Source: a virus
Taxonomy: Duplodnaviria > Caudoviricetes
Virus record (IMG/VR): IMGVR_UViG_3300030207_002897
Span: 1 to 58,285 of that record
Strand: one strand, 5' to 3'
DNA length: 58,285 nt
Numbering within the stretch: the first letter of the stretch is position 1; each line of letters starts with the position of its first letter. The notes beneath the pieces were generated by a model that worked only from the letters and a program-made list of their open reading frames with translations, searched no databases and was not told the DNA's origin. The translations under genes and the position numbers were made by a program. Below, piece by piece: positions 7,170 to 54,461 of the stretch.

Positions 7170-9275
7170 ATGGCATTTGATTTTGCAAAACGAAAAAACA
7201 ATAGCGGCAGAGTGAATAACCAAGCTAAAAGCGGCAATAGTAATTATTCTCCGTTTGGTAGCAAGCAAGCCTTTGGGAAGTCAACAACTGTAGCCGCACA
7301 AGGTGGCGCCGCTCAGACTGGTGCCTCTGCTGCCGCAAAAAAGAAGCAGGCAATGCAGGGTGCAGTCGGCACAGGGGCAACACCGGGATCGACTCCCCAG
7401 AGAAAACAAAATTTATTTTCTCCTACAAGCAAGGCCTCGTCTTCCGCCGCTGCCTCTTCAGCCTCCTCTACGTTAGGTGGTGGAGTTAGTTCTGGTGGAA
7501 TGTCAGGTGCAGCTCCTGCTAGTGCTACTAATTATGGTGATTACAAAAAACAAATAGACAGCTTATTGTCCGGCACTGGCGGTGGTATTGGCGGCGGTGG
7601 CTTATCAGGGCAAACTGGCGGTGCCACACAAGGCTCTGATGGAAGTAGAATGTCTGGAGCAGGCACTGGAACACCAGTTAAGGGTGATGGCAGTGCCGCT
7701 GGATGGGACGTTGAAGATACTCCAATGGAAATGCCTGAAGAAGGTGGCCAGCAGGGGGGAGGTTCTCCATTTAGCTTAGAGCAGGGAGATTACCAGTGGG
7801 GTGACGAATACGATCAGTACGGCCAAGCCAAGACTTGGGAGTATGGTGTTGGAAATCAAATCCAACAATATCAACGAGGTCTAAATGAAGAGCTTGGTGA
7901 TAGCTGGTATGACTATCAACAGCAGTGGTTTGACCAAGCTGCTCCAGTAATACCTCACGACCCCCTAACCCACCAATGGCACAGCCAGTTTGGAATAGGC
8001 CCAGCCAATCCTTATGGGTCTCCAATGGTGCAGCAGTTGTTTGAGCGATGGCTAAGAGAGCACCCTAACGCTAGCGAAGAAGAAATAGCGGCGATGGAAG
8101 CCCGCTTTTCTAAGCAGTGGGCCACCCCTGGCGGTATAGGTGGCTTCAGTAGTGACAAATGGCGAGAGCTTGAGTTTGGAAACTATGGAATGGGAAGCCA
8201 CTATGGTAGCTGGGGTGATCCTGAAGATCCTTGGGAAAGAGGCTATCAAGGTGGTGAGTCAGACTTGCTAAACAAAGTCTTTCACATGAATATTGGCCCT
8301 GACAGCGCATTCGCTGACAAAGAACTGCAAGTTTCAAGGCTCTACCATCGGGCATTTAGCAAGCCAATCATAGACTGGGACGAAGACTGGAATCCTATTT
8401 ACGGGAACAGTCCCTTCGAGTCAATGAAGTGGAGGCTAAATGCTCCTGAAACAGAAGAAGTGTATGCTACTTGGAAAAACCTTTGGGGCGTAACCGATGA
8501 GGATATTGACCAACTAAGAAATATTCGAGAAGACCAGATCGGTACGCACTGGAACAGAGCCATGGCGGATGAGCACGAGAGATTTCTTCGTGATAGATTA
8601 GATCTGCTTAGAAGCAAGACTCCAGCACAGTTAAAAGAAGATCATCCAGGGATGTTTATTTTTCACCCTGAAACTGGCGAAATCATATCAGTTAGCCACT
8701 GGTCGCCACATCACACAGCTCAAATTCTTTTAGATGAACCTATTACTTTCCGGGGAAAAAGACTTATAGGCGAGATTCAAATTGAAGAGAGTATGCCAGA
8801 AGATAATCGCATTTTGGACATTGGTGGGTTTAAGCGGCCAGACAGAGACCAACAATATCCGGGACTTCCTAAGATGTCTTATATAAATGCCGATGGAGAC
8901 AGGATATACATTGTTGAAGGTCCTCAGAGTGTTTGGGGTGGTAATACTCAAAATATATTATCGCATCACCCCAAGACGGGAGAGCCTATTGTTACTGGCC
9001 CTGATCCTCGAATGGATGAGGCAAACTGGGAAGAATTTAGCTGGACAAGTAAGTTCATAAACCTGCCTCCTGATACTGGCGAAAACCTAATGTATTTTGT
9101 TCGACCCTTTGAGCCGATTGAAGACGCTATTTGGTATGCAGAGAACTGGCTAAACGCCTACGAAATGGCTAAACAAAGCGGCGACATGGGCGGCGACATG
9201 GGTGGAGGCATGGGCGGCGACATGGGTGGCGACATGGGCGGCGGAGAGGGATTCATCCCTGGAATTGATAGCTAA
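7170..9275 (+). CDS. Gly/Ser-rich then Trp-rich putative virion protein with C-terminal GGDM repeats
   Basis: ATG 7170 directly after upstream stop (701 aa) preferred over 7113; Cys-free. Confidence 0.75.
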   Translation: MAFDFAKRKNNSGRVNNQAKSGNSNYSPFGSKQAFGKSTTVAAQGGAAQTGASAAAKKKQAMQGAVGTGATPGSTPQRKQNLFSPTSKASSSAAASSASSTLGGGVSSGGMSGAAPASATNYGDYKKQIDSLLSGTGGGIGGGGLSGQTGGATQGSDGSRMSGAGTGTPVKGDGSAAGWDVEDTPMEMPEEGGQQGGGSPFSLEQGDYQWGDEYDQYGQAKTWEYGVGNQIQQYQRGLNEELGDSWYDYQQQWFDQAAPVIPHDPLTHQWHSQFGIGPANPYGSPMVQQLFERWLREHPNASEEEIAAMEARFSKQWATPGGIGGFSSDKWRELEFGNYGMGSHYGSWGDPEDPWERGYQGGESDLLNKVFHMNIGPDSAFADKELQVSRLYHRAFSKPIIDWDEDWNPIYGNSPFESMKWRLNAPETEEVYATWKNLWGVTDEDIDQLRNIREDQIGTHWNRAMADEHERFLRDRLDLLRSKTPAQLKEDHPGMFIFHPETGEIISVSHWSPHHTAQILLDEPITFRGKRLIGEIQIEESMPEDNRILDIGGFKRPDRDQQYPGLPKMSYINADGDRIYIVEGPQSVWGGNTQNILSHHPKTGEPIVTGPDPRMDEANWEEFSWTSKFINLPPDTGENLMYFVRPFEPIEDAIWYAENWLNAYEMAKQSGDMGGDMGGGMGGDMGGDMGGGEGFIPGIDS
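9180..9239 (+). repeat. Five 12-bp tandem units (GGCGACATGGGY) encoding GDMG/GGMG
   Basis: Read directly. Confidence 0.9.
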
Positions 9276-9295
9276 CATGACAAAATGTCATCTTA
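9273..9295. promoter_or_regulatory. 23-bp palindromic site, copy 1 (TAACATGACA-AAA-TGTCATCTTA)
   Basis: One of five near-identical copies; overlaps the upstream stop and abuts the SD of 9308. Confidence 0.85.
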
Positions 9296-9307
9296 AAGGA
9301 TTTTGAA

Positions 9308-9949
9308 ATGCAAAGTATTACAGGTGGATTCGGGCATTCCGAAAGGCGTAGAGGCCTTGGTTTCGACGAAGACAAGCTGCAAAAAGAAGGTATACCTGTT
9401 AGCTCTAGATTTACGGAAGCTATGAAAGTCCGTAAGCGCGGAGGTGCTAAGCAGCGTGAAAAAAACCGTGCAATGGCAAAAGCATATCAAGATCCAGGCG
9501 AATGGGTAACGTCGCCTGGCTTCTCTACTGACGCTGGGACTAAGCATGAAAAAGATTTTACTAATGCACGGAACCTAGGAAGTGTGATGCACGCAAAACT
9601 AGGCACGGAGTTTGACCAAAGGCTAAAGGATGCTGAGCATCGCCAGAACGTAAGCTCAATGCAAGATCAGGATTTCTTAAACAATCTGTCATACATGCAG
9701 GACCGCATAGATAACCGCACAGCACTAGATAACGCTTTACTGGACGCACAGGCAAGATACCAAGCTGCCGGTCTGGAAGCACAAAGCCAGTACGATCGCA
9801 TGATGATGCAGAACCAGATGGATATGTACAACTTAATGCAGGGTAACTTGCGAGACATGATGGGTCAGTTTAGCGGTGGATTCGGTGGTGGAATCCCAGG
9901 AATCCCCGGAATTCCAGGCGGTGACATGGGTCTAGGCGGGGGGTGGTAA
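9308..9949 (+). CDS. Putative internal virion protein, Gln/Met helical core and Gly-rich tail
   Basis: 213 aa, SD AAGGA, Cys-free. Confidence 0.7.
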   Translation: MQSITGGFGHSERRRGLGFDEDKLQKEGIPVSSRFTEAMKVRKRGGAKQREKNRAMAKAYQDPGEWVTSPGFSTDAGTKHEKDFTNARNLGSVMHAKLGTEFDQRLKDAEHRQNVSSMQDQDFLNNLSYMQDRIDNRTALDNALLDAQARYQAAGLEAQSQYDRMMMQNQMDMYNLMQGNLRDMMGQFSGGFGGGIPGIPGIPGGDMGLGGGW

Positions 9950-9952
9950 GCC

Positions 9953-12900
9953 ATGCCTCCTACTAATCGATCAGATTTAACGAGTAACCTACCCATGGAT
10001 CCAGAACAGCTAATCAGAAATCAACAAGCCGCAGAGATGGGCAAGAAGTTATTCGGGTATCAAGAGCCAGGAATAGGCAGGTACCCAAGCACTTTCAAAG
10101 CAGACCCTAGGTATTCACAGGCCCCCCCTGTTCCTATGAGCCCGCAAGAACGGGCTATCCGAGAGGCAATGAAGGGTAGTGCGCTAAGCGGCAAGGAGTT
10201 TTATGGTGGCTATCCAAACAAGCAGGCTTTAATTGAGGGTATTAAAGCGGCTGCCAGCCAAGGAGTAGATGTAGCTGAGCTATTACCATTAATTCCAGCA
10301 GGTGTTCTTAGCCCAGAAGATCACGCAGATCTTATGAAATCAAGATGGCAGGAAAATCCTAGGACAGGAGGCCTTACATCTAAAGCTATAGATCCAGGTA
10401 TAGAACACGCAATAGAAGCCGTGGGTGCACCGGGAATACCAACTGAATACGGCAATCAACTCCCGTTTGGTTCATACGGCGTAAGCAACCCAGAAGCAAT
10501 ACCCGCAACAATAATGGATGCTCTTGATCCTGGGCAACATCAATTCATGGAACACTCCCTTGGCCTTACTCCTCACAGCGGAAGACCTGGCGATGTTCCC
10601 GCCGGTAAGAAAACCAACATCTTAAGCGCGTCCCAGTTAAAGCGTATTGGAGGCATGGATAGCCTCGAGAAGCAGCTAGAGGCATTGAGGGATATTGTTT
10701 ACGACCGAGGTATACAAGCTCACAACGAAATTAAACAAAATGTCCTGAACTATATGGAGAATACAGCAGGCACGCCAGCCGGAACTAAAACAATAGCTGG
10801 CAAGATTAGAGATGCGCAAGCTGGAGGAAAGTTCTCTGGAGCTACAAGTGAAGATCTTGTAAATCAAATGGCAACAGGGATTGCCGATCAATCTCTAACA
10901 GGAGTTTCACAAAGAGCAGGTAAATATGAGCCCGCTGTTGTCGAAGGCACGACCACCTTTGAGGATCCAGACAAAGTTCTTATGAGGGCACTTGTCAATT
11001 CCGATATACCTTTTGAGCAAGACCCAGACGCTGCATCAGCCTCAGAGGGATACAAGGTAGACACCGAAGCCGCCTTTATAGAAAACATGGGTGATAAAAA
11101 GCGGTTCGATCCAACCGTAAACACACGCCCTATAGAGCAGCTTAGTCCAGGCGAACGATTGGCAGCTACATTGCAGGGTGCTACCGGCATACCTCCGCTG
11201 AGCGAGAGCGAAATCATGAAGCTGGTTGGCGAGATCAATCGAGTCAAAACTGCTACTGTGCAGTCATTTGCAGACCAGCCCGAATTGCTTCTTGGGCAGG
11301 GGCGACAGCAGCAAATGGTTTGGAATCCCAAAACTGACAAACATGAAACAACCATAGATTACACAGGAAAGGAAAAGTCGGCTCACTCCCCTCTTGATTA
11401 CCTGTATATGTGGAATAAGGGCGCACGGGGTAAGGTTGATATTCCCGATGATGTTCTTAAAAATGCCTTTAAGCAAACAATAAAGATCCCAGCGGGGTCT
11501 GGATCTGCTTATGAATGGCCTCAAGCTGACGTAATAAGAACATTAATTGGTGATTACAATCGGGGCTTTGAAGCTCTTCAGCAAAATCCAGAGCTTGCTA
11601 TCAATACAAAGCAGCCTGAAATAGTAAACCCAGAAGTGCCTCTCGACACAACCTACGATAGAATCTTTGGCCCTCATGGAGAGCGGTGGACTGGCAAACC
11701 ATTTGGTGTTCAGCCAAGAGAGTATGCTGCTGGTTATGGCCACGACGACTTCCTGAATGCACGGGACTATGTTGATTACAGAATGCAAAAGCCTCTTACG
11801 GGTAAGCTCAACTGGATGCACTTGCAGCCAAGGCTAGACTTACAAACGGAAGAAGGTGGTTCGTGGGATATAATCCCTGAAACCGAAGGATTAAGGGCAA
11901 AAACAGAACAGGCTCAAGCGGACAGCTTTAATGAATTTGTTGAGAAGTGGAACGCTAGGCATGATGTGTCGCCACAGGAAGCGGAATTAAGGTCTGTACT
12001 GAGACTGCTTGCTGGCCAAGACAAATATAAAATTGATGATGACGCCCTTGCCATGGCGATGGATTACCTTGCAGACATGACTCCAGGTAATCGCAGTGAA
12101 GGGAAGGATTGGTTTGTCGTGACACTAGAAGACGATGCCCTGTCCGAAGACGAATACGATCGGGAGCCGATTTGGGCTGATATAGCACATGCGGAAGGCG
12201 AAGTCTTGGAAGGCATGGCAGAAAGGCATCCAGAACTAAAGAAATTTTATAACGCCGATGGAGAACTAGACTATAAGGGACTAGCACAAGCCATAAGAAA
12301 TGCCCCTGGGTCGTCATTAGACATGAAGATAAGCAATCTCACTGGTGCGCAAGGTAATTTTGCTGGTCATGTTTCAGATAGGATTCCTCATGACTATGCC
12401 TGGAGAAATGTTCCTAGGTATGACGAAGCAGTTGAACTCACAAAAGGTAAAACTGATATTGGCACAGCCGATTTACAGAGAGCATTGGGTATTGGGTTTG
12501 GGCAGGCCAGTGCCCTTATGAGAAAGATGGAGGAAGCTGGTGTTGTTCAGGCGCTAGAAGGTCAATCTAAAAGACGAGTAGTTCAAATGCAGAGCACACC
12601 AGAAGGCATGATTCGCAACCTATCTCCAGCTAGACCACAATCAATACTTCCGATGGATACTGGATTCCCTCTAGACGCAGGGGCAGTATTAGGTGAGCAG
12701 GCCGGGCCAAGGATTAACCCGATGTTCCGTTACACGCCGGAAGATTTTGGTGCTAATGTTCCAATGACTCCAGAGGAAATAGCTGCAAAAGAAGCTAGAA
12801 ACCAAGAGCTTCGAGATGCTTTCTCTTCAACTAATGATGCGTTTGATTTAGAGGCAGCATCACCAGAGGCTGCAGCCCCTGAAGAAGTAAACAAAAGCCT

Positions 12901-14626
12901 ACGCGACAGAATGGCATCTGGAGCAAAGGCTGTAGTAACAGCTCCAATAGAAGGTGTTAAGAAAACCGGAGGTAAAATTAAAGGCGCTTGGGACTCCATG
13001 TGGGATTCTAACCCTGAGTTAAAAGGCCCTCCATCTAGAATGTCAGAGCTTCTAACAAGAAGAACCAATGTAGGGTCAAGCCTCAACAAGCTGCAGACAG
13101 CGATAGACGACTTTAGCAAAACTAAAGCTGGTCGACCGATAGCCTGGGGCAAGGCTGGCATTGAGAAAGCAGCCTCTTTCAAGCCTACCGCTGGAGGGCT
13201 GATAAGTTTAGGCGGCGATTTGTTTGAGTTAAGTAAGGGCGCAATTACCGCTAAGGAATATGCAAAGTATGGAACGCCAAAAGATCTTGTATTAGGTCGA
13301 GATGTTGCAGATTACAACCAGTTGATACTTCACCTTGCAGGCAACAATACTGATGGCCCAGATGGTGTAAAAGTTCAATACATTACCCCTGAGCAAGGAC
13401 AGAGACTGTTCGATCTTAGAGACGAGCTTGTCGCTGGTGTCCAATCAGGTCAGTATAGCAGCGTAGAATCACACCCTAACTACAAGACAATGCGAAGAAA
13501 CCTTAATGAGTACACCAAGATGAGAGAGGGTGGGCCCGAAGGTGCATTTGGAAGGTCTATCAATGTACTCGAAAAATCTAGCAAAGAGGATATGGGCTGG
13601 ATGCCTCAGTACAGACTTGAGACACAAGCTGGTACCGACTCTTACATAGATGAGCCAGAATCAGATCTTACCCCTTACGGAATGTTCCATATGCCCGGCT
13701 GGTCTGACTACACTGGCCAAGCAGCGTCCGTAGAAGGCGCAGGAGAGATGGCTAGTGGTACCGTCAAGAGCCTTATGAACCCATTAATGGGTGTGCATTA
13801 TGGTATTGAGGGTGTGTTTGGTAACGTGGGAGATTATGACACCTTGGGCAGTGGCTTTGTTAGGTCCCCTAACTATCAAACATTGAGGCTTCGCAGCGAT
13901 GTCGATTCCAAGAAGTTCATCGGAAAGAATACACCAGAAAAGATAAAAGAAATTTATGATGCTACCCCTTACAGCAATCGACGCTATTGGAAATGGAATC
14001 CAGACTCAAGAACCCTAACGAACAAACACACAGGGACTGCTGTAAGAGAAGAGGATACTGGAATTGAAAACTTTGGTGAGAAGTGGAAGAACTGGGGCGA
14101 TTACGTTCAGGCCCTTCGTGACGTAAGAAGCGTTGATGATAACAAACATGCTGTTACCGACCACAAGGCTATTGTCGATAAGAACTTTAAGGACAAGCCG
14201 ATGTTTACCGAGAGAGATCACGGTAATTACATTAAGCCTGAACCTTTCAAGGGTGCTACAGCCTGGGATGCGTTGAGTATGCCGAATGTTCCTTGGTATG
14301 CGAAGCTGCAACAATTTGTGGATAGGGGTCTTACGTCTATGAAACCTAGCAATCCTTTTGAAGGTGTTGCTGACACCGGCCAATTAGATGAAGTTGCAGA
14401 TCCTTATCAAAAAGGAAACGTCATAAGAATTTACAATCAAACAGGCGATAATCCAGGAGAGATCGTTGGCTATAATAGAAGCATGGGCAATGACAGCTTC
14501 TGGGAAAGCCCTGTAAGCAACGTTTTAACCGAACACGAAAGAATGATTAAGTCGCTTACACCTTACTGGGAACATAAAGAGTCTAAGTACACAGACATAT
14601 ACAAGCTAATTGGGGAAGATGAATAA
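9953..14626 (+). CDS. Large putative ejection/internal virion protein with internal FtsK-gamma-like winged helix
   Basis: 1557 aa, no Cys seen; aa ~820-877 match the FtsK gamma pattern. Confidence 0.7.
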   Translation: MPPTNRSDLTSNLPMDPEQLIRNQQAAEMGKKLFGYQEPGIGRYPSTFKADPRYSQAPPVPMSPQERAIREAMKGSALSGKEFYGGYPNKQALIEGIKAAASQGVDVAELLPLIPAGVLSPEDHADLMKSRWQENPRTGGLTSKAIDPGIEHAIEAVGAPGIPTEYGNQLPFGSYGVSNPEAIPATIMDALDPGQHQFMEHSLGLTPHSGRPGDVPAGKKTNILSASQLKRIGGMDSLEKQLEALRDIVYDRGIQAHNEIKQNVLNYMENTAGTPAGTKTIAGKIRDAQAGGKFSGATSEDLVNQMATGIADQSLTGVSQRAGKYEPAVVEGTTTFEDPDKVLMRALVNSDIPFEQDPDAASASEGYKVDTEAAFIENMGDKKRFDPTVNTRPIEQLSPGERLAATLQGATGIPPLSESEIMKLVGEINRVKTATVQSFADQPELLLGQGRQQQMVWNPKTDKHETTIDYTGKEKSAHSPLDYLYMWNKGARGKVDIPDDVLKNAFKQTIKIPAGSGSAYEWPQADVIRTLIGDYNRGFEALQQNPELAINTKQPEIVNPEVPLDTTYDRIFGPHGERWTGKPFGVQPREYAAGYGHDDFLNARDYVDYRMQKPLTGKLNWMHLQPRLDLQTEEGGSWDIIPETEGLRAKTEQAQADSFNEFVEKWNARHDVSPQEAELRSVLRLLAGQDKYKIDDDALAMAMDYLADMTPGNRSEGKDWFVVTLEDDALSEDEYDREPIWADIAHAEGEVLEGMAERHPELKKFYNADGELDYKGLAQAIRNAPGSSLDMKISNLTGAQGNFAGHVSDRIPHDYAWRNVPRYDEAVELTKGKTDIGTADLQRALGIGFGQASALMRKMEEAGVVQALEGQSKRRVVQMQSTPEGMIRNLSPARPQSILPMDTGFPLDAGAVLGEQAGPRINPMFRYTPEDFGANVPMTPEEIAAKEARNQELRDAFSSTNDAFDLEAASPEAAAPEEVNKSLRDRMASGAKAVVTAPIEGVKKTGGKIKGAWDSMWDSNPELKGPPSRMSELLTRRTNVGSSLNKLQTAIDDFSKTKAGRPIAWGKAGIEKAASFKPTAGGLISLGGDLFELSKGAITAKEYAKYGTPKDLVLGRDVADYNQLILHLAGNNTDGPDGVKVQYITPEQGQRLFDLRDELVAGVQSGQYSSVESHPNYKTMRRNLNEYTKMREGGPEGAFGRSINVLEKSSKEDMGWMPQYRLETQAGTDSYIDEPESDLTPYGMFHMPGWSDYTGQAASVEGAGEMASGTVKSLMNPLMGVHYGIEGVFGNVGDYDTLGSGFVRSPNYQTLRLRSDVDSKKFIGKNTPEKIKEIYDATPYSNRRYWKWNPDSRTLTNKHTGTAVREEDTGIENFGEKWKNWGDYVQALRDVRSVDDNKHAVTDHKAIVDKNFKDKPMFTERDHGNYIKPEPFKGATAWDALSMPNVPWYAKLQQFVDRGLTSMKPSNPFEGVADTGQLDEVADPYQKGNVIRIYNQTGDNPGEIVGYNRSMGNDSFWESPVSNVLTEHERMIKSLTPYWEHKESKYTDIYKLIGEDE

Positions 14627-20988: not shown

Positions 20989-21426
20989 TTAACTGTCTGT
21001 TAGGTTGATTTCTAAATCCTGCAGTGTCAGGGTTTGCCCTGCACTTACACTTTTAGTGCCACCGAAATCCCAGTAAGCAAATATCTTTCGACTATTAGCT
21101 GTGCTGTTTTGGTCTGTAAGAACAGCTCCGGTTGCATTGGTTATAGCACCCGCAAAATCTAAATCTTTTATTTGTATCCAGGCTTTGTCGGTACTACTGT
21201 CAGTGTGGCTTAACACATTAAATCCCGATCCATCTCGTGTTACAGCAGCAGTTTTGCCTGCAACAACATCGCTGGATATTTCGCTGTAGTTATCTAAGTC
21301 TTCAGGGTTAGCCGGTACTGAGCCAGTTAAAATTTCTACATTGAAATTAGTTCCCTCTACCGACCCTGCTTGGAAGGCCAGCTTCAGGATTTCTTCTTTC
21401 CCTCGGTTGGTTACTTTACTAGCCAT
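20989..21426 (-). CDS. Small beta-sandwich structural protein (fibre subunit-like)
   Basis: 145 aa; VTNRGK start and IFAYWDFGGTKSVSAGQTLTL end, a pattern common in small phage fibre/tail proteins. Confidence 0.55.
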   Translation of the reverse strand: MASKVTNRGKEEILKLAFQAGSVEGTNFNVEILTGSVPANPEDLDNYSEISSDVVAGKTAAVTRDGSGFNVLSHTDSSTDKAWIQIKDLDFAGAITNATGAVLTDQNSTANSRKIFAYWDFGGTKSVSAGQTLTLQDLEINLTDS

Positions 21427-21440: not shown

Positions 21441-21463
21441 TAAGATGCCAAAATGTCGTGTTA
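21441..21463. promoter_or_regulatory. 23-bp palindromic site, copy 2 (TAAGATGCCA-AAA-TGTCGTGTTA)
   Basis: Intergenic, immediately upstream of the SD of 20989..21426. Confidence 0.8.
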
Positions 21464-21468
21464 ATATA

Positions 21469-21840
21469 TTATACAGTCTCTATCTCTTTTATTTCTACCT
21501 CAAGACAGCCAGGCTTCATGACTTCTCCACGCAATACATGAAGGTCATCTATCTGCTCGTCGTCCCCGAATACACCAGCATATCCTAGTGCATCGAGCGC
21601 CGCCTTGTTTATGTTGTCTATGTCCCTGCGCCTGCGGTCAGGCATGGTAGCTGTTATCTTTACTTGAAGCCTGCCAAGTAATGGTCGAGGATCTTCCACA
21701 TCATCAGATTCAAAAGCACTATTAATAGCAGTATAGACAGCATCACGATACTCACGGCCTCTCCTTGATATGATAACCCTCCCCTTAACTGCACGCCAAT
21801 AGGTATTAACGCTAGGTGGATAAGGTATTATTATGACCAC
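21469..21840 (-). CDS. rusA: RusA-family Holliday junction resolvase
   Basis: PYPPSVNTYWR and PDRRRRDIDNINKAALDAL...DDEQI motifs. Confidence 0.93.
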   Translation of the reverse strand: MVIIIPYPPSVNTYWRAVKGRVIISRRGREYRDAVYTAINSAFESDDVEDPRPLLGRLQVKITATMPDRRRRDIDNINKAALDALGYAGVFGDDEQIDDLHVLRGEVMKPGCLEVEIKEIETV

Positions 21841-22225
21841 AGTTTCCCTCCATTACTAGTTCATGTACATACTCCATAACCTCGTCTTCCGTGACTCGGT
21901 TAGGAGCCCGTAACTCAGGGTCTTTAATCCTTAGCCACGACTCAAGATCGTAGTGAAGTATATCATGGATGTACTTGTACGCAAGCTGCTTAGCGTGAGG
22001 CATAGCAGCAAGGTCATCCATGTGGCACTTCTTGCAGGCCCTGAAATAATTTTCTTCTTTAGCCCAGGCATGGTGTGGTGCCTGGCTTTTCCTTTCCATC
22101 TCATGAGTCTCCAGTGGAAACCCAGCATGATGTGTGGCACCGCACACCCAACACTGCCGCCTGTTATCTGCCCAACTCTGCCGCTCATTTAACAAATGTT
22201 TAATTTCAGATGCTGTCTTCTTCAT
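21812..22225 (-). CDS. HNH-like Zn-binding protein
   Basis: CWVC...LETHEM...NYFRACKKCH pattern. Confidence 0.55.
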   Translation of the reverse strand: MKKTASEIKHLLNERQSWADNRRQCWVCGATHHAGFPLETHEMERKSQAPHHAWAKEENYFRACKKCHMDDLAAMPHAKQLAYKYIHDILHYDLESWLRIKDPELRAPNRVTEDEVMEYVHELVMEGNCGHNNTLST

Positions 22226-23405
22226 CCTTACCCCAGCCGTTTGTTAGTAGATTCATTGCGTTGCCTCCAATAAAATTCTTTATTGTTATGTCGTCGTACC
22301 CCATGTCCAGCAGGTGCTTGGCAATTAATGGGAAGTCAGCCGCTGTCGTCATCTCATCAGGTGGATCTGTAAAGCCATCGAAGTCTGAGCCTATAGCGGG
22401 TACGTCTGCCCCTGCTACATTGACCATATGATTAAGCGTCTGCTCTATGTACTTAAGACCATTCCCTTCATGGTGGTGAGGTGTTAGCCAGTAGTTCATG
22501 AAGATAATGCCAGCACAACAGCCTCTGTCGGCCATCCACTTTAGCTCCCAGTCTTGCAGGTTATATGAAAGTCTATGCACTTCGCTAGCTCCGACGTGGC
22601 TTGCCATTAAAGCGTGGTCTTTGTCGTGAGCGTCCACTATATCGTACACTTCTTTCCGTCCTCTCAGTGTCATGTGAGTTACATCTATAATCATGCCCAA
22701 CTCTAGCATCGTCTCAACAATCTCCACCCCTGTTTGAGTTAGCCCGCCGGACTCCTCCCAGTTGCCCGCCAGGGAGTGAAAGTTTTTTATATTCTTTTTC
22801 TCTGGCTCAGGGTAAGGAAACACACACGACTCCACCGCTGGATTGGGATAGAAGTGGGCAAGGGTTAGATAAGCACAGCCCTTTGCCCACAGCTGACGAA
22901 GGTTAGAAATAATTTCTTTTTGATCCCCTGGTCCGCCATCACCTATCAGTGAGTGTGCCCCTTCAACCGAATGAACTATACAGCTTTCGCCATGATTAAC
23001 CTTACTAACTAGGTGATGTTTATCTCTAGCTATACATACACCATCGCATTGATTCACGCTATCTTCTAGGTGTTGCATCATATCTAACGTGACTTGGAAG
23101 TAAGTAGGATCGAGAATCTTTTTCCTGAACTTTGGAGATAGCTTGGAAAGAAATTTTATTAAGGGCACATCATCAAGCCACTCGCGTTCGAGTACATAAG
23201 TGGTAGCCAATGATACATCTATGTGATCCTTAAGATCATCCAGAGATACACGGTGACTAAAAGGCCAGAAGGTGTACTTAAACAGGCGGGAAAGAAATTT
23301 CTTTTTGTTCATGCTCCGGGAGAACATGTAGCTTTTAAGATGTGGGTGTGTATGCAGATCAACAGACACGCCATTATAAAACTCTTTGGTGCTTTCAATA
23401 ATCAT
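22206..23405 (-). CDS. Membrane dipeptidase (peptidase M19, amidohydrolase fold)
   Basis: DLHTH, VEGAHSL, YLTLAH, GLTQTG...GMIIDVTH, ASH and IGSDFDG motifs. Confidence 0.9.
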   Translation of the reverse strand: MIIESTKEFYNGVSVDLHTHPHLKSYMFSRSMNKKKFLSRLFKYTFWPFSHRVSLDDLKDHIDVSLATTYVLEREWLDDVPLIKFLSKLSPKFRKKILDPTYFQVTLDMMQHLEDSVNQCDGVCIARDKHHLVSKVNHGESCIVHSVEGAHSLIGDGGPGDQKEIISNLRQLWAKGCAYLTLAHFYPNPAVESCVFPYPEPEKKNIKNFHSLAGNWEESGGLTQTGVEIVETMLELGMIIDVTHMTLRGRKEVYDIVDAHDKDHALMASHVGASEVHRLSYNLQDWELKWMADRGCCAGIIFMNYWLTPHHHEGNGLKYIEQTLNHMVNVAGADVPAIGSDFDGFTDPPDEMTTAADFPLIAKHLLDMGYDDITIKNFIGGNAMNLLTNGWGKDEEDSI

Positions 23406-25015
23406 CGTTTACCTAATTCCTTTTTAATAGCAGAGCGGAGCCAAGCCACAGAGATGAAAGGTTTACCAGCCATGCACGACTCAAGGTACCAAGTCGGAAC
23501 ATCTTCGACTAACGTCCCACGGAACTTGCCGAACAGCATACGGGCTCCGCGCTTCTTCTTGCGGACATTGCCCTGAGCATTCTTTCCGAAAGGATCAATG
23601 TCGAGAGTATGGTACTGGGCGTTCGCTTCGATTTGCCTACGCCTCTCACGTTCCTCCTCTTCCCTTTCTTCTCGCACTTGTCGCTGTGCTTCAAGCATTG
23701 CTTCGTCTAACTCGACAGCCTGGCCAGCTTCTAAAATATTTTCTTTTGCTTTCCCCAGAACATCCAGCCCCATGTCGCCAAGCATTACATCAGCTGAGGT
23801 TACTATCTTGTGGGCAAGTGATGAGTCAACTAAGTCAATCATTCTGAAGTGTGGCTTAGCAGAATCCTTTATCGCCTCACGTCTGGATGCAGCATCACTG
23901 CCGTCAAAATCAACCACACCAGGCAGAGGCCTAGTACCCCTACCAAATATCTGTGTGTAAAGAGCACGGCTTCTTGTCGGTCTAGCCATGACAATGTTTC
24001 GTAGGTCAGGATAATCCCAGCCAGTAGTAAGAATACCCACGTTGCAAACATGCGTGATACCTCCAGCATCTTCCTGAAAAGAACGCATAACTTCCCGCCT
24101 GTGTTCAGGTGTGCATCGTCTTGCGTCTGATGCGATCCAGTCTGCTCTGATTCCATAGTTATCTACTAGCCTTTCAGCAACTAGCTTAGCTTCTTCTATG
24201 CTGCTGCAATAGATTACAGTCTTCTCGCCTTCGGTTTCTTTTGCAGTAATGTCGGCGATCTCCATTACTGTCTCAGACTTTTCAAGCAGTGCATTCAGTT
24301 GTGTTTGCCTAAAGTCTCTGCCATGTATTGTGTTAGAAGTCTCCACGCCAGAGAGGTCGAGGGACTCAAGCTGTACGCAGTGGGTAATTGCAGGCGTGAG
24401 CCACCCTTCACCCACCGCATCTCTAATACCGTACTGATAGACGCACTCTTCGTAGCAGTTGAGCATGGCTTTCTTGTCGTGTCGCTTAGCCGTAGCTGTA
24501 ACTCCAAGAACTTTGGCTCCGTCCCTTCGATAGTAATCAAGTAGCTCTTTCCATTTAGGTGTAATGGAAAGATGGGCCTCGTCCACCACAACAAGCCCAA
24601 CGTCCCTAATCCTTTCATATCTAGGCGGGTCGCCAGAAGATAGAGTGTCTTTTGATGCGACGACATATTTACTACGTCCCCATGGCGTTTCGATTGACCA
24701 GTTCTTTGCCTGCTCTACGCCAGGCTGCTCGCCAGTTCTTAAAAATATTTTCTTTGCAGCCTGGGATATTAGCTGGATGTAAGGAGCGATGACTAAGCAC
24801 CGCCCCTTACTCCAGTCCTTGGCGACTTGGGTAAATATTTCTGTCTTACCTAGACCTGTAGCTAGCTCAACCAGTATAGAATCATGATCCTCAAAACCTT
24901 TTTCTATTGCAACCCTAGCTTCAGATTGGTAAGGGCGTTCGCAGAAATAATTTAATTGTCCTGGCTTTCCTTGGCGGCGCGGCTGAGGAACCCCGTCCCA
25001 TAACAACTGTTGCAT
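23402..25015 (-). CDS. SF2 DEAH-box helicase with C-terminal DUF3820-like motif
   Basis: RPYQ, ATGLGKT, DEAH, TAT, LTTGWD and QIFGRGTR motifs; tail MLFGKFRGTLVEDVPTWYL. Confidence 0.93.
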   Translation of the reverse strand: MQQLLWDGVPQPRRQGKPGQLNYFCERPYQSEARVAIEKGFEDHDSILVELATGLGKTEIFTQVAKDWSKGRCLVIAPYIQLISQAAKKIFLRTGEQPGVEQAKNWSIETPWGRSKYVVASKDTLSSGDPPRYERIRDVGLVVVDEAHLSITPKWKELLDYYRRDGAKVLGVTATAKRHDKKAMLNCYEECVYQYGIRDAVGEGWLTPAITHCVQLESLDLSGVETSNTIHGRDFRQTQLNALLEKSETVMEIADITAKETEGEKTVIYCSSIEEAKLVAERLVDNYGIRADWIASDARRCTPEHRREVMRSFQEDAGGITHVCNVGILTTGWDYPDLRNIVMARPTRSRALYTQIFGRGTRPLPGVVDFDGSDAASRREAIKDSAKPHFRMIDLVDSSLAHKIVTSADVMLGDMGLDVLGKAKENILEAGQAVELDEAMLEAQRQVREEREEEERERRRQIEANAQYHTLDIDPFGKNAQGNVRKKKRGARMLFGKFRGTLVEDVPTWYLESCMAGKPFISVAWLRSAIKKELGKR

Positions 25016-25830
25016 CCTTCTCCTCCACAGTCAACACAGGCAGCAACAGGTTCACACTGGCTGATGCTGTCGATGACTTCATCTAGGTTATTCTTTATTC
25101 GAGTAAACTTACTGGCAACATACTTACCTTCCGTTGGATTGTAAGAGATCTCTTCCATCTTTTTCCTGATGGCTCTTAGTTGTCTCGTCGAATTTTTATA
25201 TGGCTCAGCCAGTTCGGTAATCCAAGCGTCGATGTCTTCATATTCAATTCCCTTTCCTTCTTGTATAGATTTAGCTGCTTTCTTTTGGTCTCGCTTGTCC
25301 ATCTTGACAAGCTCTTTGATTTGTTTTGCCGTTGCTTTAACATCACCCTTTAGTACAGATGTCTTTACTTCGGGCTCAAGCTGGTCGATGTCTTTAGCTA
25401 GTGACACATCACGTTGCAATGTTCTTACGCTAACCCCTTCATCACTTGCTAGCTCAGCAAGTTCTTTCCCTTCTGTCTCCCCGAATCCGCCATGAGGTTT
25501 CATCTCCTTAGCGATCCTTTGCCCACGAAGATATTTAATTTCCATAGGCATGAGGTTTCTTCGGCCTGCTTGCTTATCTATTATCCATTGCTTAGCTTCT
25601 TCTCTGCTATCAAACTCAAGATCAAGAGTAGTATAGTCATAGCCACCATGCGTACAGATCCCGTAACGATGATGACCGTCGATAATAGTATTATCCCAAA
25701 GGATAATAGGATCGTAAGCCATTCCCAGTGTTCTAATTGACTCTTCAAGGCTGTCATATTCCTCGCTGTTTAGTGGACGAAGTAGGTCTTTGAACTCTTC
25801 ATCAATCGAAATGTTTGTCTGTTCCGCCAT
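24952..25830 (-). CDS. ParB-like protein with HTH and C-terminal Cys4 Zn finger
   Basis: PIILWDNTIIDGHHRY, LASDEGVSVRTLQRD and CVDCGGEGCNSCYGTGF. Confidence 0.8.
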   Translation of the reverse strand: MAEQTNISIDEEFKDLLRPLNSEEYDSLEESIRTLGMAYDPIILWDNTIIDGHHRYGICTHGGYDYTTLDLEFDSREEAKQWIIDKQAGRRNLMPMEIKYLRGQRIAKEMKPHGGFGETEGKELAELASDEGVSVRTLQRDVSLAKDIDQLEPEVKTSVLKGDVKATAKQIKELVKMDKRDQKKAAKSIQEGKGIEYEDIDAWITELAEPYKNSTRQLRAIRKKMEEISYNPTEGKYVASKFTRIKNNLDEVIDSISQCEPVAACVDCGGEGCNSCYGTGFLSRAAKESQDN

Positions 25831-26008
25831 GGGACTCTAGCTCCTCTTGTCTTGAAACGTATAGTTGTCTAATAATATTTTTTGTTTTGTCCCCCAGGTT
25901 CATGGCTTTAATTGCCTGCCCTGAATCCCGCAGCTCTTCCAAGCTACGAGATTCATAAAGGGCCTGCGATATAACATGAACCTGTAAGATGTTAATGAAG
26001 TCACCCAT
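25802..26008 (-). CDS. Hypothetical protein
   Basis: 68 aa, fills the gap in the operon and overlaps both neighbours. Confidence 0.6.
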   Translation of the reverse strand: MGDFINILQVHVISQALYESRSLEELRDSGQAIKAMNLGDKTKNIIRQLYVSRQEELESHGGTDKHFD

Positions 26009-27445: not shown

Positions 27446-27820
27446 CTACTCCTCCTGTTGTAGTTTTCTCCTTTGGGTTACTTCCTTTACCATGGCAGAC
27501 CTCAGTTGTTCAATAGACTTTTGTCCACACATCGGTACAGTTTTAAGAAGATGCTCATCTGAAACCCCGACCAGATCTCGCATGTATGTGTACCCCATTT
27601 TCTCAAACAGATTGATTATCTTATCATCCAGTTCAAGCAATGCAAGGGGTGTGTCTCCAAGTATTGCATTCTTTGTGTCTTGTTTTGATAGCTCAGCCTC
27701 ATCAATAGCAACATGGGCTGCATCGAAATGCCCTGACTTAAGCAAGACGTATACCCGCTCGGCTATCTGCCTCGCATAAGCATCACTGATAGAGTAATTA
27801 TTTTTTAACTGCCCCATCAC
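27446..27820 (-). CDS. Stand-alone RNA polymerase alpha C-terminal domain protein
   Basis: TPLALLELDDKIINLFEKMGYTYMRDLV...LLKTVPMCGQKSIEQL aligns with alpha-CTD (LELTVRSANCL...LLKTPNLGKKSLTEI). Confidence 0.8.
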   Translation of the reverse strand: MMGQLKNNYSISDAYARQIAERVYVLLKSGHFDAAHVAIDEAELSKQDTKNAILGDTPLALLELDDKIINLFEKMGYTYMRDLVGVSDEHLLKTVPMCGQKSIEQLRSAMVKEVTQRRKLQQEE

Positions 27821-28699: not shown

Positions 28700-29461
28700 T
28701 TAGTTCTTCCTTCTCTTAACTCTTTGTTGGTAGCTATGCTTACGATCCTTTTCTAGTATTGCGAACGCATCCTTCTGCTCTCCCGCTCCGGGGAAACCAT
28801 CAAGGCCTGCCTCGTATGCAACCCTGACGTTTGTCTGGTTCCACTTGTTTCCGTTAGCTCTTTTCTTCTTGCTTAATTTTCTTACTATCTCTGACCAGCT
28901 GGTGCCTGTGTTCTTCCACTCTATCATCTGGCACACTAGCTCTCTTTCTTTGTAGTCTGGTATGAATGCCGCTTGTCCGTCTGATCGAATGATCTTGTAA
29001 CCTATCGGCGACTGCTTATTGACTGGCCTGCCTTGGCCTTTAATCTTAGCCATCGCATCGGTCATCTGTCTGCTCTTTATTTTCCTGTTAAAGGTAGCGT
29101 ATGTTCTTACCAAGTCGAACATTATCTCGCCGCTTGCCGTTGCCATATCAACCCCTGTCTCCAGGATATTAAAATAAATATTTCTTTCTTGCAGCTCCTC
29201 GATAGTATCAACTGCGTTCTCTATGCTGACGAAACATCTATCTAGTTTGTAGGCTATGATGTAGTCGCCGCTGGTCAGTCGGTTAAACAACTCCTCGCCC
29301 GCCTGACGCTCGAATATATTTATTCTCCCGAACACTTCATCATCTACAAAGAACCCCCCGAACTCTCCATCGAATCTATCCAGGCTAGATAAAATAATTT
29401 TTTCCTGGTGTGCCCTGGATAATCCTTCTTCTGATGAGTCTCTTATGTAACCGTAAATCAT
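28700..29461 (-). CDS. Serine recombinase (resolvase family)
   Basis: YGYIRDS, GDYIIAYKLDR, GVDMATASG, PIGY and a C-terminal HTH. Confidence 0.88.
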   Translation of the reverse strand: MIYGYIRDSSEEGLSRAHQEKIILSSLDRFDGEFGGFFVDDEVFGRINIFERQAGEELFNRLTSGDYIIAYKLDRCFVSIENAVDTIEELQERNIYFNILETGVDMATASGEIMFDLVRTYATFNRKIKSRQMTDAMAKIKGQGRPVNKQSPIGYKIIRSDGQAAFIPDYKERELVCQMIEWKNTGTSWSEIVRKLSKKKRANGNKWNQTNVRVAYEAGLDGFPGAGEQKDAFAILEKDRKHSYQQRVKRRKN

Positions 29462-29475: not shown

Positions 29476-29509
29476 AAAATGAAAGGGGAGCAGGTTGCCC
29501 TACTCCCCT
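29476..29509 (-). terminator. Intrinsic terminator downstream of ssb
   Basis: GGGGAGTAGG-GCAA-CCTGCTCCCC then TTTCATTTT. Confidence 0.75.
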
Positions 29510-29605
29510 CTCGAACTTCGGAGATTACACTGATGTGTACGACTACCGTTACACGCCACCTGTAGCTGGGCGACCCATCGTGCTTATCGCACAGTCAGGG
29601 CTGAC

Positions 29606-29628
29606 TAACATGACATTCTGTCGTCTTA
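29606..29628. promoter_or_regulatory. 23-bp palindromic site, copy 3 (TAACATGACA-TTC-TGTCGTCTTA)
   Basis: Overlaps the ssb stop codon. Confidence 0.85.
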
Positions 29629-30012
29629 GAAGGGGACGTCGTTCGACTGAACTGGTTGAGCCATAGGCTCTGTGCTTGCAGGTCGGTCGGCTGTGTCTGA
29701 TTTCTTATCTAAAGAAATTAATTTATCTACAGTAACCTTGTGCTTACTACGCTTTCCGTCCTCAGTCTCCCATCTATCCTGATGAAGCCTACCTTCTACC
29801 AAGACATTGGAACCCTTGCTTAGATAGTTAGATGCAAAGTTAGCAGTCTGATTCCACAGTGTAAGATCTACATAGTGTACTGTCTGCTTGTCCTTGTATC
29901 CTTCGTTAACTGCAAGGGGTACATCACCTACTACCTTATCCTCTCCTAGTTGTCTTAGCTCTACGTCTCGAACTAAATTCCCTGCTAGGATTACTCTATT
30001 AAAACTTGCCAT
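29626..30012 (-). CDS. ssb: Single-stranded DNA-binding protein
   Basis: FNRVILAGNLVRDVELR, KGSNVLVEGRL and acidic DVPF tail. Confidence 0.97.
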   Translation of the reverse strand: MASFNRVILAGNLVRDVELRQLGEDKVVGDVPLAVNEGYKDKQTVHYVDLTLWNQTANFASNYLSKGSNVLVEGRLHQDRWETEDGKRSKHKVTVDKLISLDKKSDTADRPASTEPMAQPVQSNDVPF

Positions 30013-36987: not shown

Positions 36988-37497
36988 CTACTTGGTTACC
37001 GGCGTGCGAGCCGTGTAATCGTTCACCATTGGTAGAGTTCGCTTACCCCACACCCCTGTCAAAGCTGCCATGGGGCCGAGGTGCTGGCCTGAAAGCATAG
37101 GCCGAGTGATGAACTCTGGTTTGATTACTTTCCCAGAGGTCGGATGAGTGAACTTAAGACCGTGCGTATTTGGCACAACGTGGTAAGGCCTGTTATCGGC
37201 AGTCGGATTGTACTCGTCACGTTTCCAGGTAATACGGTCTTTAGTTACCTCATCGACCTCGCCGGTCTCGGGGTCAATCGGCTCTGGGAAAGTAGCAACC
37301 AGATCAAGCTCGGCCCCTGATAGCAGCACTGGAAGTACCATGAGCCACTTATAACCATTCACGACATACTCACCAATGACTAACTTATCATCGAATGATT
37401 TGGTAGTAACCGTGAAGTCGTCACTGTTCCCGACTGGATTAGTAACTAGGAAGTTAGGACCACGATTGAGGCGGACTGGTTTAGTTGAGTTAGACAT
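36988..37497 (-). CDS. Hypothetical protein, first leftward gene
   Basis: 169 aa, SD AGGAG, own terminator. Confidence 0.8.
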   Translation of the reverse strand: MSNSTKPVRLNRGPNFLVTNPVGNSDDFTVTTKSFDDKLVIGEYVVNGYKWLMVLPVLLSGAELDLVATFPEPIDPETGEVDEVTKDRITWKRDEYNPTADNRPYHVVPNTHGLKFTHPTSGKVIKPEFITRPMLSGQHLGPMAALTGVWGKRTLPMVNDYTARTPVTK

Positions 37498-37999
37498 ATC
37501 AATGTCTCCTAAAGTTAGAAAAAAAATTTAATTAGACTAGCAAACAAACTAGTCAACACCCTCACAACAAAGGGCAGGGAATGGATCATCGACGACAGGA
37601 GATGAGGAATGGACTGCCTAAACGTGGCTAGAGAAGAGGAGACAATGATATGTCGTGAACCACCAACGGGAACAGTGACGACCATGCAAATCTGGTGAGT
37701 ATGTTGGTGAATGGTTGTACGTGCAGTGGCTCATGGTACTGGGGTTGCTGCGGTCAGGGAATCGGTTCTTCGCTGGTGCAGGTGAACTGGTGAGCCGGCT
37801 GAAGCGAAGGGGGCCCGATGCCCCAAGTGGCAACCCCCCTATATTATGTCCCACGCGGAGATTTTTTGCACTTTCCCAGCCAAAAGGCGGCTTTTCCACC
37901 AGAACTCTATGGGCAAATGGTCGCTCGCGTTTGTTGTTGGCCTGTTCGGAAAGTAAAATTTTTTCAAAACAATAATTTTTTAGAAGGGGTTGGTGTACG

Positions 38000-38022
38000 C
38001 AAGACGACATTTTGTCATCTTA
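38000..38022. promoter_or_regulatory. 23-bp palindromic site, copy 4 (CAAGACGACA-TTT-TGTCATCTTA)
   Basis: In the divergent control region, ~55 bp upstream of a TATAAT at 38078. Confidence 0.85.
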
Positions 38023-49979: not shown

Positions 49980-50005
49980 CCCCTTTTAGGAAAGGAATCA
50001 ATATT

Positions 50006-50696: not shown

Positions 50697-50709
50697 ATTG
50701 GAGAAACAA

Positions 50710-51372: not shown

Positions 51373-51374
51373 CA

Positions 51375-51827
51375 ATGCCAAATATCATGATAGCTGGGCA
51401 ACAAATGCCCTATGATCCACAGCAGCTGGCTATGCTCTTGCAGAGCGCTAGTGAACAAGACTTGAATATGGCGGTTCAGCAAATTCAAGGATTGCCTCCA
51501 CAAGAAAGAAATCAGGCTATGCAGTTAATACAGCAGGCCATGATGATGCTAGGTGGCCCACAAGCTGCACAGCAGGGTGCCGGAGATTTAACTCATCTGC
51601 AGGGCCCAGATGTAGGCGCGTTATCCCAAGCGATGGAATCTGGGATGCAGCAAGGAACAATAAAACCGCTTGGGCCATCAAGTAGCGGAGCTGGGCCAGC
51701 CCAAATGGGGCTTGGTGGGAACTTCGTTGATGATGCAGGTGCAATGGCTCCAGGGTATTTGCCAGGCATAGACGGCGCCACTCCAGATTTGCGACAAGCA
51801 AGGATGCGTGATAATGGACTCACATAA
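51375..51827 (+). CDS. Gln/Met/Gly/Ala-rich low-complexity protein
   Basis: 150 aa, tight packing. Confidence 0.7.
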   Translation: MPNIMIAGQQMPYDPQQLAMLLQSASEQDLNMAVQQIQGLPPQERNQAMQLIQQAMMMLGGPQAAQQGAGDLTHLQGPDVGALSQAMESGMQQGTIKPLGPSSSGAGPAQMGLGGNFVDDAGAMAPGYLPGIDGATPDLRQARMRDNGLT

Positions 51828-52344
51828 AACATGCACAAAGTGCAATGTTGAATACCCGTTAAGCAGAGATTTTTGGCACCGAGACAATCACTCTGCTGAC
51901 GGGTACCGGACTACATGTAAGATGTGTCGTTCGGAAGAAGTCGAAAACAACCGAAAAGAAAAAGTTTCTAAGGCGGTAGACAAAATAGAAGATGAGGGCG
52001 TTGATTTATTAGATACGCTACTCAAGGGAGGGTCTGATGTCCCTCACATGGGAGAGACCTTCCAGAGAATAATGGAAGCCTTTGGTGGCCCAGGTGGATT
52101 AGCTCAGCAAGTTGCAGCTACCTTTTTTAGATCTGCCCCCGGTAGCCAGCAAAGACAAAGGATTCTTGAATCTGTCCTTAGATTAAATATTAAAGTTTCC
52201 GAATCCGGTGCGGCACAAAAATCATTTGAGGAGCTAACTAATGAAGAGCTTGATGAAGAGATTCAAAAGTCAGTTCGCTCAGTTATCGACCCAGACCTAC
52301 AAACCCTATATAAGCTAAAGCCATCCGATGGAGAATCAAGATAG
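51814..52344 (+). CDS. Putative terminase small subunit with N-terminal Zn finger
   Basis: CTKC...CKMC; ELTNEELDE tail; directly upstream of TerL (positional inference). Confidence 0.5.
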   Translation: MDSHKTCTKCNVEYPLSRDFWHRDNHSADGYRTTCKMCRSEEVENNRKEKVSKAVDKIEDEGVDLLDTLLKGGSDVPHMGETFQRIMEAFGGPGGLAQQVAATFFRSAPGSQQRQRILESVLRLNIKVSESGAAQKSFEELTNEELDEEIQKSVRSVIDPDLQTLYKLKPSDGESR

Positions 52345-54058: not shown

Positions 54059-54060
54059 TC

Positions 54061-54441
54061 ATGACGACTACCGAAAAGAAATCGCCAGAACAGCTGGCAC
54101 ACGAGTTTGTAATGCCCGATATTGAGCTTGGATCACCAGTGATGTTTCATCGCGCCCACGACCTACAAAATCCACAATTAGGCTTTGTCGTAAGAATAGG
54201 CCGAACAGGTAAGAATGTAGTCATTCGGACATCAGACAGACATGTTCACGAATCAGTGAAGCATGTAGATGACCCTCGTTTAGACTGGAATGTAGACCAT
54301 CGAGAGTCTGGATCATGGGATTATACCCCTGAGTGGAAACGGTTAGAGAAAGAGCGAAAAGACCTAGAGGCACGCGTTGCAGCTTTAGAGCATACTGCCA
54401 CGAAAACAGTTAGTCGCCGTAAGAAGTCACAAGACTCCTAA
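54061..54441 (+). CDS. Hypothetical protein (SH3-like N-part plus coiled coil)
   Basis: 126 aa, SD AGGAG. Confidence 0.75.
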   Translation: MTTTEKKSPEQLAHEFVMPDIELGSPVMFHRAHDLQNPQLGFVVRIGRTGKNVVIRTSDRHVHESVKHVDDPRLDWNVDHRESGSWDYTPEWKRLEKERKDLEARVAALEHTATKTVSRRKKSQDS

Positions 54442-54461
54442 TACGACAAAATGTCATCTTA
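54439..54461. promoter_or_regulatory. 23-bp palindromic site, copy 5 (TAATACGACA-AAA-TGTCATCTTA)
   Basis: Overlaps the upstream stop and abuts the portal SD. Confidence 0.85.

Follow-up and report, generated by a model that had tools for sequence, protein, structure and literature searches.

The window analysed here is the whole of IMG/VR virus record IMGVR_UViG_3300030207_002897, a tailed-phage genome of 58,285 bases that carries one 23-bp palindrome at five separate gene boundaries. From sequence comparison we infer, with a probability of roughly 0.65, that an orphan ParB-type protein of the phage itself, encoded at 24952..25830, docks on these palindromes as a dimer. Related phages have the same arrangement built on different palindromes, with matching changes in the recognition helix of their ParB-like proteins.

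Scanning the window for the word TAA-N-A-Y-GACA-N3-TGTC-R-T-N-TTA with up to three mismatches returns exactly five places, and 100 dinucleotide-preserving shuffles used as control contain none. Against the degenerate word of an earlier note, 9273 and 29606 have no mismatch and 21441, 38000 and 54439 have one each. Both halves of each site fit one and the same half-site, making the sites dyad-symmetric, and no stray half-site of the form TGTC[AG]T[CG]TTA occurs elsewhere in the window. That note, made from the DNA letters alone, had described such a five-site, 23-bp palindrome at gene boundaries, and this holds: all five sites lie at gene boundaries. The spacings that it gave, about 12, 8, 8, 16 and 13 kb on the circle, are confirmed as 12.2, 8.2, 8.4, 16.4 and 13.0 kb; since the last ~100 bases of the record, which represents the whole virus, repeat the first ~100, the window is a complete circle of ~58.18 kb. 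Open reading frame (ORF) and start codon positions likewise agree with its statement that three sites reuse a TAA stop and three abut a Shine-Dalgarno sequence. The outer three bases of the palindrome are the stop codons of ORFs 7113..9275, 54061..54441 and 29626..30012 (minus strand), and AAGGA, AGGAA or TAGGAAAG lies 0-1 nt past three sites, with a start codon 10-14 nt further on (9308, 54472 and, on the minus strand, 21426). Only the word itself needs amending. As first written, it is matched exactly only at 9273 and 29606, and positions 4 and 20 are non-complementary in four of the five sites and drift freely, in a close relative too. These two positions are better left as N, so that the constrained word is TAA-N-AYGACA-N3-TGTCRT-N-TTA with an A/T-rich centre.

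The word is kept in near relatives only. An exact-pattern scan of viral contigs returned six stretches, two from the relative G003 and four from unrelated DNA. G003 is 75-94% identical to the window at the nucleotide level over ~42.6 kb aligned and has five sites at the five homologous places, with GACA-N3-TGTC retained and at most five of the 23 bases differing per site; the counterpart of site 1 is at 30299, and that of site 4, at 597, has five changed bases around a retained GACA-N3-TGTCAT core. Retrieval by portal protein gave 54 loci, and the gap upstream of the portal gene was read in 24 of them: the window's word (class A) is found there in one (G003), a different palindrome in five (L020, L021, L033, L035 and L036) and no clear palindrome in 18. 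Five further relatives (G006-G010, with portals 68-72% identical in the four for which they were aligned) all lack the class A word at up to three mismatches. A de novo search for palindromes with 9-base arms and at most two mismatches, the version on which we rely, finds one dominant palindrome family per genome in four of these five (G006-G009; Table 1), compared with families of at most two members in shuffled genomes. The related locus L142 has AAATCGGCAAA-N-TTTGCCGATTT twice, and the identical word precedes the portal gene in L033, L035 and L036.

The slots recur as well. In the window, G003 and L136, the class A word stands in the gap after the RusA gene; in L093, L100, L101, L102, L104, L105 and L141 that gap has the G008-type word (class B). 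The window, G003 and L142 have a site at the end of the SSB gene, and G007 has one within the 3' end of the SSB coding sequence. The divergent region beside the homologue of ORF 45276..45545 is a slot in G006, G007 and G009, and the gap before a very large virion gene is one in the window, G003, G008 and G009. The earlier note had named conservation in related genomes as a test; the outcome is stronger than expected, in that the arrangement is kept family-wide with co-varying sequence. Two relatives without the ParB-like gene, G011 (95% complete) and G012, have only loose three-member families comparable with those in shuffles, which agrees with the ParB reading. Among 27 loci of at least 8 kb with distant homologues of the ParB N-terminal domain (28-45% identity), a two-member palindrome family is present in nine, compared with one of 27 in shuffles, too slight a difference for a conclusion. 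At 24775-24800 of the window, a stretch that resembles a palindrome was rejected as conserved helicase coding sequence.

When half-sites from eight genome sets are aligned on their dyads, 70 of 70 have G at position -5, which argues that the differing palindromes are variants of one architecture, 19-25 bp long, odd in length and with an A/T-rich centre. A binder must occur in every motif-bearing genome, and the D5-like and FtsK-gamma proteins, absent from several of these, fail for that reason. The helix-turn-helix (HTH) proteins common to motif-bearing genomes are the ParB-like protein, an HTH_17 protein and a small serine recombinase. All three diverge strongly between palindrome classes, and the early module in which they lie, together with SSB, is inherited as a block. 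Their recognition helices behave differently from one another. The HTH_17 helix, SRVRQL(I/L)R, is constant in every class, and the recombinase helix, (K/R)WNQxNxRVAY, is constant across the classes of the window (KWNQTNVRVAY), G006 and G007. The helix of the ParB-like protein differs between palindrome classes and is kept within each class. Where the helix reads RTIRND or RTVRND, position -6 is G (classes B, D and I); RTLQRD or KTLQRN comes with T or C there, and RTVWSD with T (class C). Helix residue 5 is thus R with G, Q with T/C and W with T. Contacts between arginine and guanine are common in protein-DNA recognition. The helix and the GGAAA core are the same in classes B and D, whose proteins are only 40-44% identical, and within class B helix and site persist at only 47-59% protein identity. 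Among homologues 62-98% identical to the window protein, it is the helix that varies, and the C-terminal tail does not change. Of the binders named in the earlier note, the ParB-like protein is therefore favoured by a helix that tracks the palindrome class, whereas the HTH_17 protein and the recombinase, with helices constant across classes, are not.

The strongest alternative, which we nevertheless consider unlikely, is that another regulator uses the sites as operators. It could be the HTH_17 protein, the serine recombinase, a small phage protein without annotation, or a host factor with a regulon borrowed by the phage. Palindromes at gene boundaries would suit such a regulator, HTH_17 and recombinase genes are present in all motif-bearing relatives with whole-protein divergence in step with the classes, and small proteins adjoining the ParB-like gene are further candidates. 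However, the HTH_17 and recombinase helices are unchanged between classes with quite different palindromes, no site stands in front of the HTH_17 gene, and a host factor leaves unexplained why near relatives from similar marine samples have private words in a common register.

Three observations concern the recombinase itself. Between site 3 and the terminator-like hairpin, at ~29542-29576 on the minus strand, a non-coding stretch of ~35 nt (GGTCGCCCAGCTA..GGTGGCGTGTAAC..) is nearly unchanged in G003, G006 and L092. The genomes that keep it include some of another palindrome class, which parallels the unchanged recombinase helix, and this stretch could be the recombinase's own site. In the protein (28700-29461), YIRDSSEEG stands in place of the canonical YARVSTDDQ seen in the G008 group, and the neighbourhood of its catalytic site is unusual in the window, G006 and G007 lineages. 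The palindromes were rejected as crossover sites of this enzyme on account of their odd spacer length, their five dispersed copies and the invariant helix, and as T7-like promoters (site 5 starts TAATACGAC) given the symmetry of the word and the lack of any match to a phage RNA polymerase family.

The favoured protein has 292 residues, with an N-terminal ParB-type domain (IIDGHHR, GRRNL), a central HTH (GVSVRTLQRDVSLAK), a C-terminal CxxC...CxxC and an invariant GTGFLSRAA tail. It matches the ParB-like family PHROG 4715 (E 8e-15), and a profile of 11 family members finds the pNOB8 ParB-N structure 5k5a (E 6e-5). In these 11 sequences G52-x-x-R55 (DGHHR), which has the form of the GxxR (box II) nucleotide-binding motif, and R90-R91-N92 are invariant throughout, and a G-V-S/T-x-R-T motif is conserved. 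An AlphaFold2 model (mean predicted local distance difference test score, pLDDT, 78.8; predicted template modelling score, pTM, 0.47) has helices at 118-131 and 135-149. The best Foldseek match of this model is Spo0J 1vz0 (E 1e-5 over 188 columns, covering the N-domain and HTH), the Spo0J/Noc/ParB matches range from 1e-5 to 1e-3, and further ones include Noc, the ParBs of Myxococcus and Caulobacter, pNOB8 ParB-N and KorB (8qa9 and 8qa8). The predicted structure thus has both the N-terminal fold and the central HTH of the ParB/Spo0J/Noc/KorB superfamily. Its C-terminus, a long helical pair with CxxC...CxxC and the invariant tail (pLDDT ~60), differs from the canonical ParB C-terminal domain.

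We propose that a dimer of this protein docks on each 23-bp site, with each HTH reading one half-site of ~11 bp. The invariant R-T of the helix would fit the invariant G at -5, and the variable residues would set the neighbouring bases, giving each phage lineage a private protein-site pair. The sites edge gene blocks: one stands ahead of the portal gene and one ahead of the genes for large virion proteins, one each follows RusA and SSB, and the last is in the divergent control region. The most likely effect would be a local silencing or insulation of transcription units by a protein of the early replication module, similar to that by plasmid KorB (see below). Site 2 begins 4 nt past a minus-strand sigma-70-like match, TAGAAA-18-TATAAT, of which the TATAAT at the RusA stop is retained in relatives, and a dimer docked there would lie over the transcription start. 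At the remaining four, early and late units would be kept apart by a bound dimer or a loaded clamp serving as roadblock or insulator, and the protein may clamp and slide from its sites in a nucleotide-dependent manner. A second possibility is genome organisation, or partition of a plasmid-like state. Partition as in N15 (PMC7205306) is less likely, since no ParA or evidence of a plasmid state was seen. On a wider and more tentative view, which we rate at somewhat below even odds, this uncultured family of marine tailed phages, showing no sign of ParA or lysogeny, runs a private address system, in which an orphan ParB with a fast-evolving helix and 3-10 matching palindromes at operon edges or in genes make up a recognition code of at least six pairs and bring plasmid-style, genome-wide clamp-loading or silencing into lytic growth. 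If such a system exists, the Cluster O mycobacteriophage repeats and the many orphan phage ParBs might find their explanation in it too.

Several points weigh against the ParB-like protein as the binder or against a regulatory role of the sites. Because the early module is inherited as a block, neither whole-protein identity nor covariation at the level of classes can separate its genes, and the match between helix and site comes from only about six independent classes. L140 has a single site, with an estimated chance expectation of ~0.06 for that stretch, and L092 has a helix (VRTLQREGN) near that of the window, yet no class A site in its 15.6 kb. Small conserved proteins, such as that encoded at 25802..26008, remain candidate binders. 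No motif could be defined in L090/L091 and L098/L099. The control of relatives without the ParB-like gene is small (n=2, G011 and G012). Neither the strict de novo test, which requires perfect 6+6 arms, nor a gene-aware version recovers the imperfect sites of the window itself. Pfam recognises no domain in the ParB-like protein, PF02195 included, and none of its homologues has a Pfam domain or a name. Among 66 ORFs of the window scanned against PHROGs, 48 of them also against Pfam, none has a ParA-like match, and the only ATPase near the ParB-like gene is MoxR-like and paired with a VWA protein. The clustering of parS at the par operon or origin that marks ParABS systems is not seen: the sites are 8-16 kb apart, and the nearest is ~3.5 kb from the gene. 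Finally, a sigma-70-like promoter adjoins only one of the five sites (site 2), so that the regulatory reading of the sites is weakly grounded.

Much less probable than a different protein is that the palindromes act as RNA, as hairpins in polycistronic mRNA that serve as processing sites, stabilisers, translational couplers or weak terminators. Four of the five sites do fall in gaps of 30-40 nt that separate co-directional genes, with a stop codon directly on one side and the ribosome-binding site of the following gene on the other, and a purely structural element would allow the same slots to hold different palindromes in relatives. However, folding of the mRNA strand of the 23-mers gives only -4.1, 0, -2.3 and -2.3 kcal/mol for sites 1, 2, 3 and 5, and at all four sites with a clear gene strand the sense strand folds more weakly than the antisense strand. 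The variable positions produce C.A, C.C or G.G mismatches on the sense strand, not G.U, with no compensation; no U-tract was seen after any site, and an Rfam scan of the window, palindromes included, matched no family. The stable sense stem, compensatory change and U-tract of an intrinsic terminator or structured intercistronic RNA are therefore all lacking. Site 4 lies in a divergent gap that is probably untranscribed. In G007, seven of ten sites are inside long or conserved genes, on either strand, and the element therefore acts at the DNA level and needs no intergenic setting. A structural role also leaves unexplained why each genome has one word and why G at -5 is invariant. The weak sense-strand folds and uncompensated mismatches bear out the earlier note in its preference for a dimeric DNA-binding protein over an RNA hairpin. 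That the palindromes are selfish or recombinational elements, be they short and mobile, targets of homing endonucleases or linkers at module boundaries that serve mosaicism, is hardly credible: the window encodes HNH-type endonucleases and the sites are at gene boundaries, but none of the five is at a break in similarity between the window and G003, their copy number is low and their positions are conserved, and a G at -5 that stays in register from class to class suggests a single reader protein.

Table 1 Palindromes, gene blocks and ParB-like recognition helices in the window and its relatives. Positions are those of the window.
Feature	Position or genome	Strand	Sequence	Setting or remarks
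Site 1	9273..9295		TAACATGACA-AAA-TGTCATCTTA	Between stop of ORF 7113..9275 and Shine-Dalgarno of ORF 9308..9949
Site 2	21441..21463			Between RusA (21469..21840, minus) and ORF 20989..21426 (minus)
Site 3	29606..29628			Overlaps SSB stop (29626..30012, minus); upstream of terminator-like hairpin (29512..29481) and serine recombinase gene
Site 4	38000..38022			Divergent region between leftward block and rightward block starting at 38120
Site 5	54439..54461			Between stop of ORF 54061..54441 and Shine-Dalgarno of portal gene (54472..56778)
Candidate binder gene	24952..25830	-		292 aa, ParB/Spo0J/Noc/KorB-like; directly upstream of helicase gene
Rightward block	~46 kb across origin to 19.3 kb	+		Capsid, terminase, portal, large virion-type proteins
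Leftward block	38.0 to 19.3 kb	-		SSB, small serine recombinase, HTH_17 protein, exonuclease, Erf, ParB-like protein, helicase, RusA
Second rightward block	38.1-44.5 kb	+
Palindrome	G006		AGTGCGGAAAT-N-ATTTCCGCACT	3 copies
Palindrome	G007		ACCMCTGAAAC-N-GTTTCAGKGGT	10 copies
Palindrome	G008		ACTTTTGGAAAA-N-TTTTCCAAAAGT	5 copies
Palindrome	G009		TTACTGCA-N5-TGCAGTAA	4-6 copies
Helix	Window, G003, L136		VRTLQRDVS	Class A; T/C at -6
Helix	L140		VKTLQRNAE	One site, CCCACGACA-AAA-TGTCGTCGG, right after recombinase stop; ACGACA core as in class A
Helix	G008 group		x-RTIRND	Three subgroups 47-59% identical; G at -6, GGAAA core
Helix	G006		QRTIRND	G at -6, GGAAA core; 40-44% identical to G008 group
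Helix	L142		VRTVRND	G at -6, GGCAAA
Helix	G007 group		DRTVWSD	T at -6, TGAAAC

The window has a G+C content of 46%, and a tRNA search of it found none. A cultured-phage collection held no near relative of the window by DNA or of its terminase by protein. The sequencing runs that contain window DNA are labelled marine metagenomes, and relatives of the major capsid protein within prokaryote genome assemblies occur in bins of metagenome-assembled genomes only.

Some further features of the window and of unrelated contigs deserve mention. The ORF that follows site 1 (9308..9949) precedes a gene in the virion block (9953-14626) for a 1557-aa protein whose residues 822-877 match the FtsK gamma domain (PF09397, E 8.6e-11); the gamma winged helix of FtsK itself reads oriented DNA words. 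Beside site 4, the region 37482-38000 is 78% identical to G003 at the nucleotide level, yet the 130-aa ORF that it would contain (37618..38010), whose start codon would fall within the palindrome, has no protein match there, and the region may be non-coding. Within the replication module, 22206-23405 (minus strand) encodes a membrane-dipeptidase homologue (Peptidase_M19, E 1.8e-40). Adjoining the HTH_17 gene, a 124-aa protein (27446-27820, minus strand) is kept in all relatives and has a weak match, under the cut-off, to the RNA polymerase alpha C-terminal domain (PF03118, E 0.0013); it could be an alpha-CTD mimic acting on host transcription. Elsewhere, an unrelated AT-rich virus contig (L005/L012, record G001) has three ATATGACA-N3-TGTCATAT-like palindromes within ~130 bp that happen to carry a GACA-N3-TGTC core too, and this trio looks like an operator cluster. 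Two copies of GGAATAAAATTTATTCC, spaced by ~90 bp, immediately precede a distant ParB-N-like gene (L198 7586-7694 and L199 3997-4105) and may be an autoregulatory operator pair of an unrelated phage.

To return to the proposed docking of the ParB-like protein, the phage family offers a natural specificity series in which sites and helix change together, so that a handful of proteins and oligonucleotides would suffice for a direct test of the pairing, and exchanging helices should have predictable outcomes. If the binding is real, site-specific ParB systems of the KorB/Noc type would extend to apparently lytic phages, and orthogonal protein-site pairs would become usable as DNA labels or silencers.

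Among known systems, the stoperators of Cluster A mycobacteriophages are many copies of a short word in intergenic gaps, bound by one phage protein, that silence transcription; they are asymmetric, oriented with transcription and read by the immunity repressor. The window is similar in having one short word in short intergenic gaps across a phage genome, and different in that its sites are dyad-symmetric and that such a repressor was not seen in it. The centromere sites of the plasmid-prophage N15, IR1-IR4, are reportedly dispersed on its genome. According to the available text on N15, these four palindromic sites are bound by its own SopB (PMC7205306), and, as is proposed for the window, a phage genome thus has separate palindromic sites for its own ParB-family protein; unlike the window, in which neither is evident, N15 as described there has SopA (a ParA) and a proven linear-plasmid prophage state. 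A survey of the ParB-CTPase fold lists, in the text available, many orphan ParBs in phages and mobile elements with no DNA sites assigned (PMC12704722); the window protein resembles these in its ParB fold without ParA, a combination common in phages. The ParB activators of phage thymine dioxygenases are described in the accessible part of their report as having no DNA-binding domain (PMC13229309), in contrast to the window protein with its HTH, and a role of this kind was rejected for that reason and because no dioxygenase was found in the window.

Closer are the Cluster O mycobacteriophages such as Corndog, which, in the available text of their description, have 34 copies of the 17-bp TGTTCGG-NNN-CCGAACA between and inside genes, with a 3-bp spacer that is mostly TTT or AAA and no tie to promoters (PMC4351075). 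These phages have neither integrase nor parAB, and do have a gene with a ParB-like domain (PMC4351075). In the same text the authors predict a dimeric binder and give the function as unknown, do not link the ParB-like gene to the repeats and doubt a role in stability (PMC4351075), and as far as that source goes such dispersed phage palindromes have been without an assigned binder since 2015. Like the window, Cluster O genomes combine a dispersed dyad word, an A/T-rich 3-bp centre and a ParB-like gene; unlike it, their word is TGTTCGG-NNN-CCGAACA rather than AYGACA-N3-TGTCRT, and is present in 34 copies rather than five. KorB of the IncP plasmid RK2 is, in the portion of the report available, a ParB-family HTH protein that acts as a genome-wide silencer through a palindromic OB word dispersed on a ~60-kb replicon, with the ParA-type IncC and the clamp-locking KorA as partners and with CTP-dependent sliding demonstrated (PMC11790492). 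Like OB in that account, the word of the window recurs at separate places, near promoters as well as far from them: one site adjoins a promoter-like match, another is in a divergent region, and relatives also have intragenic sites. The predicted fold of the window protein matches KorB (8qa9 and 8qa8) as well. The differences are that the window sites are longer (23 bp), that the C-terminus is Cys-rich and not of the KorB type, and that the replicon is a tailed phage; no KorA was seen in the window, although no search aimed at it was made. A full-text literature search, with subscription journals and supplementary files outside its range, returned no paper linking a phage orphan ParB to dispersed lineage-specific palindromes. 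The arrangement in the window would be a further variant of the ParB-site systems, to which KorB-OB and the 17-bp repeats of Cluster O are the nearest in print.

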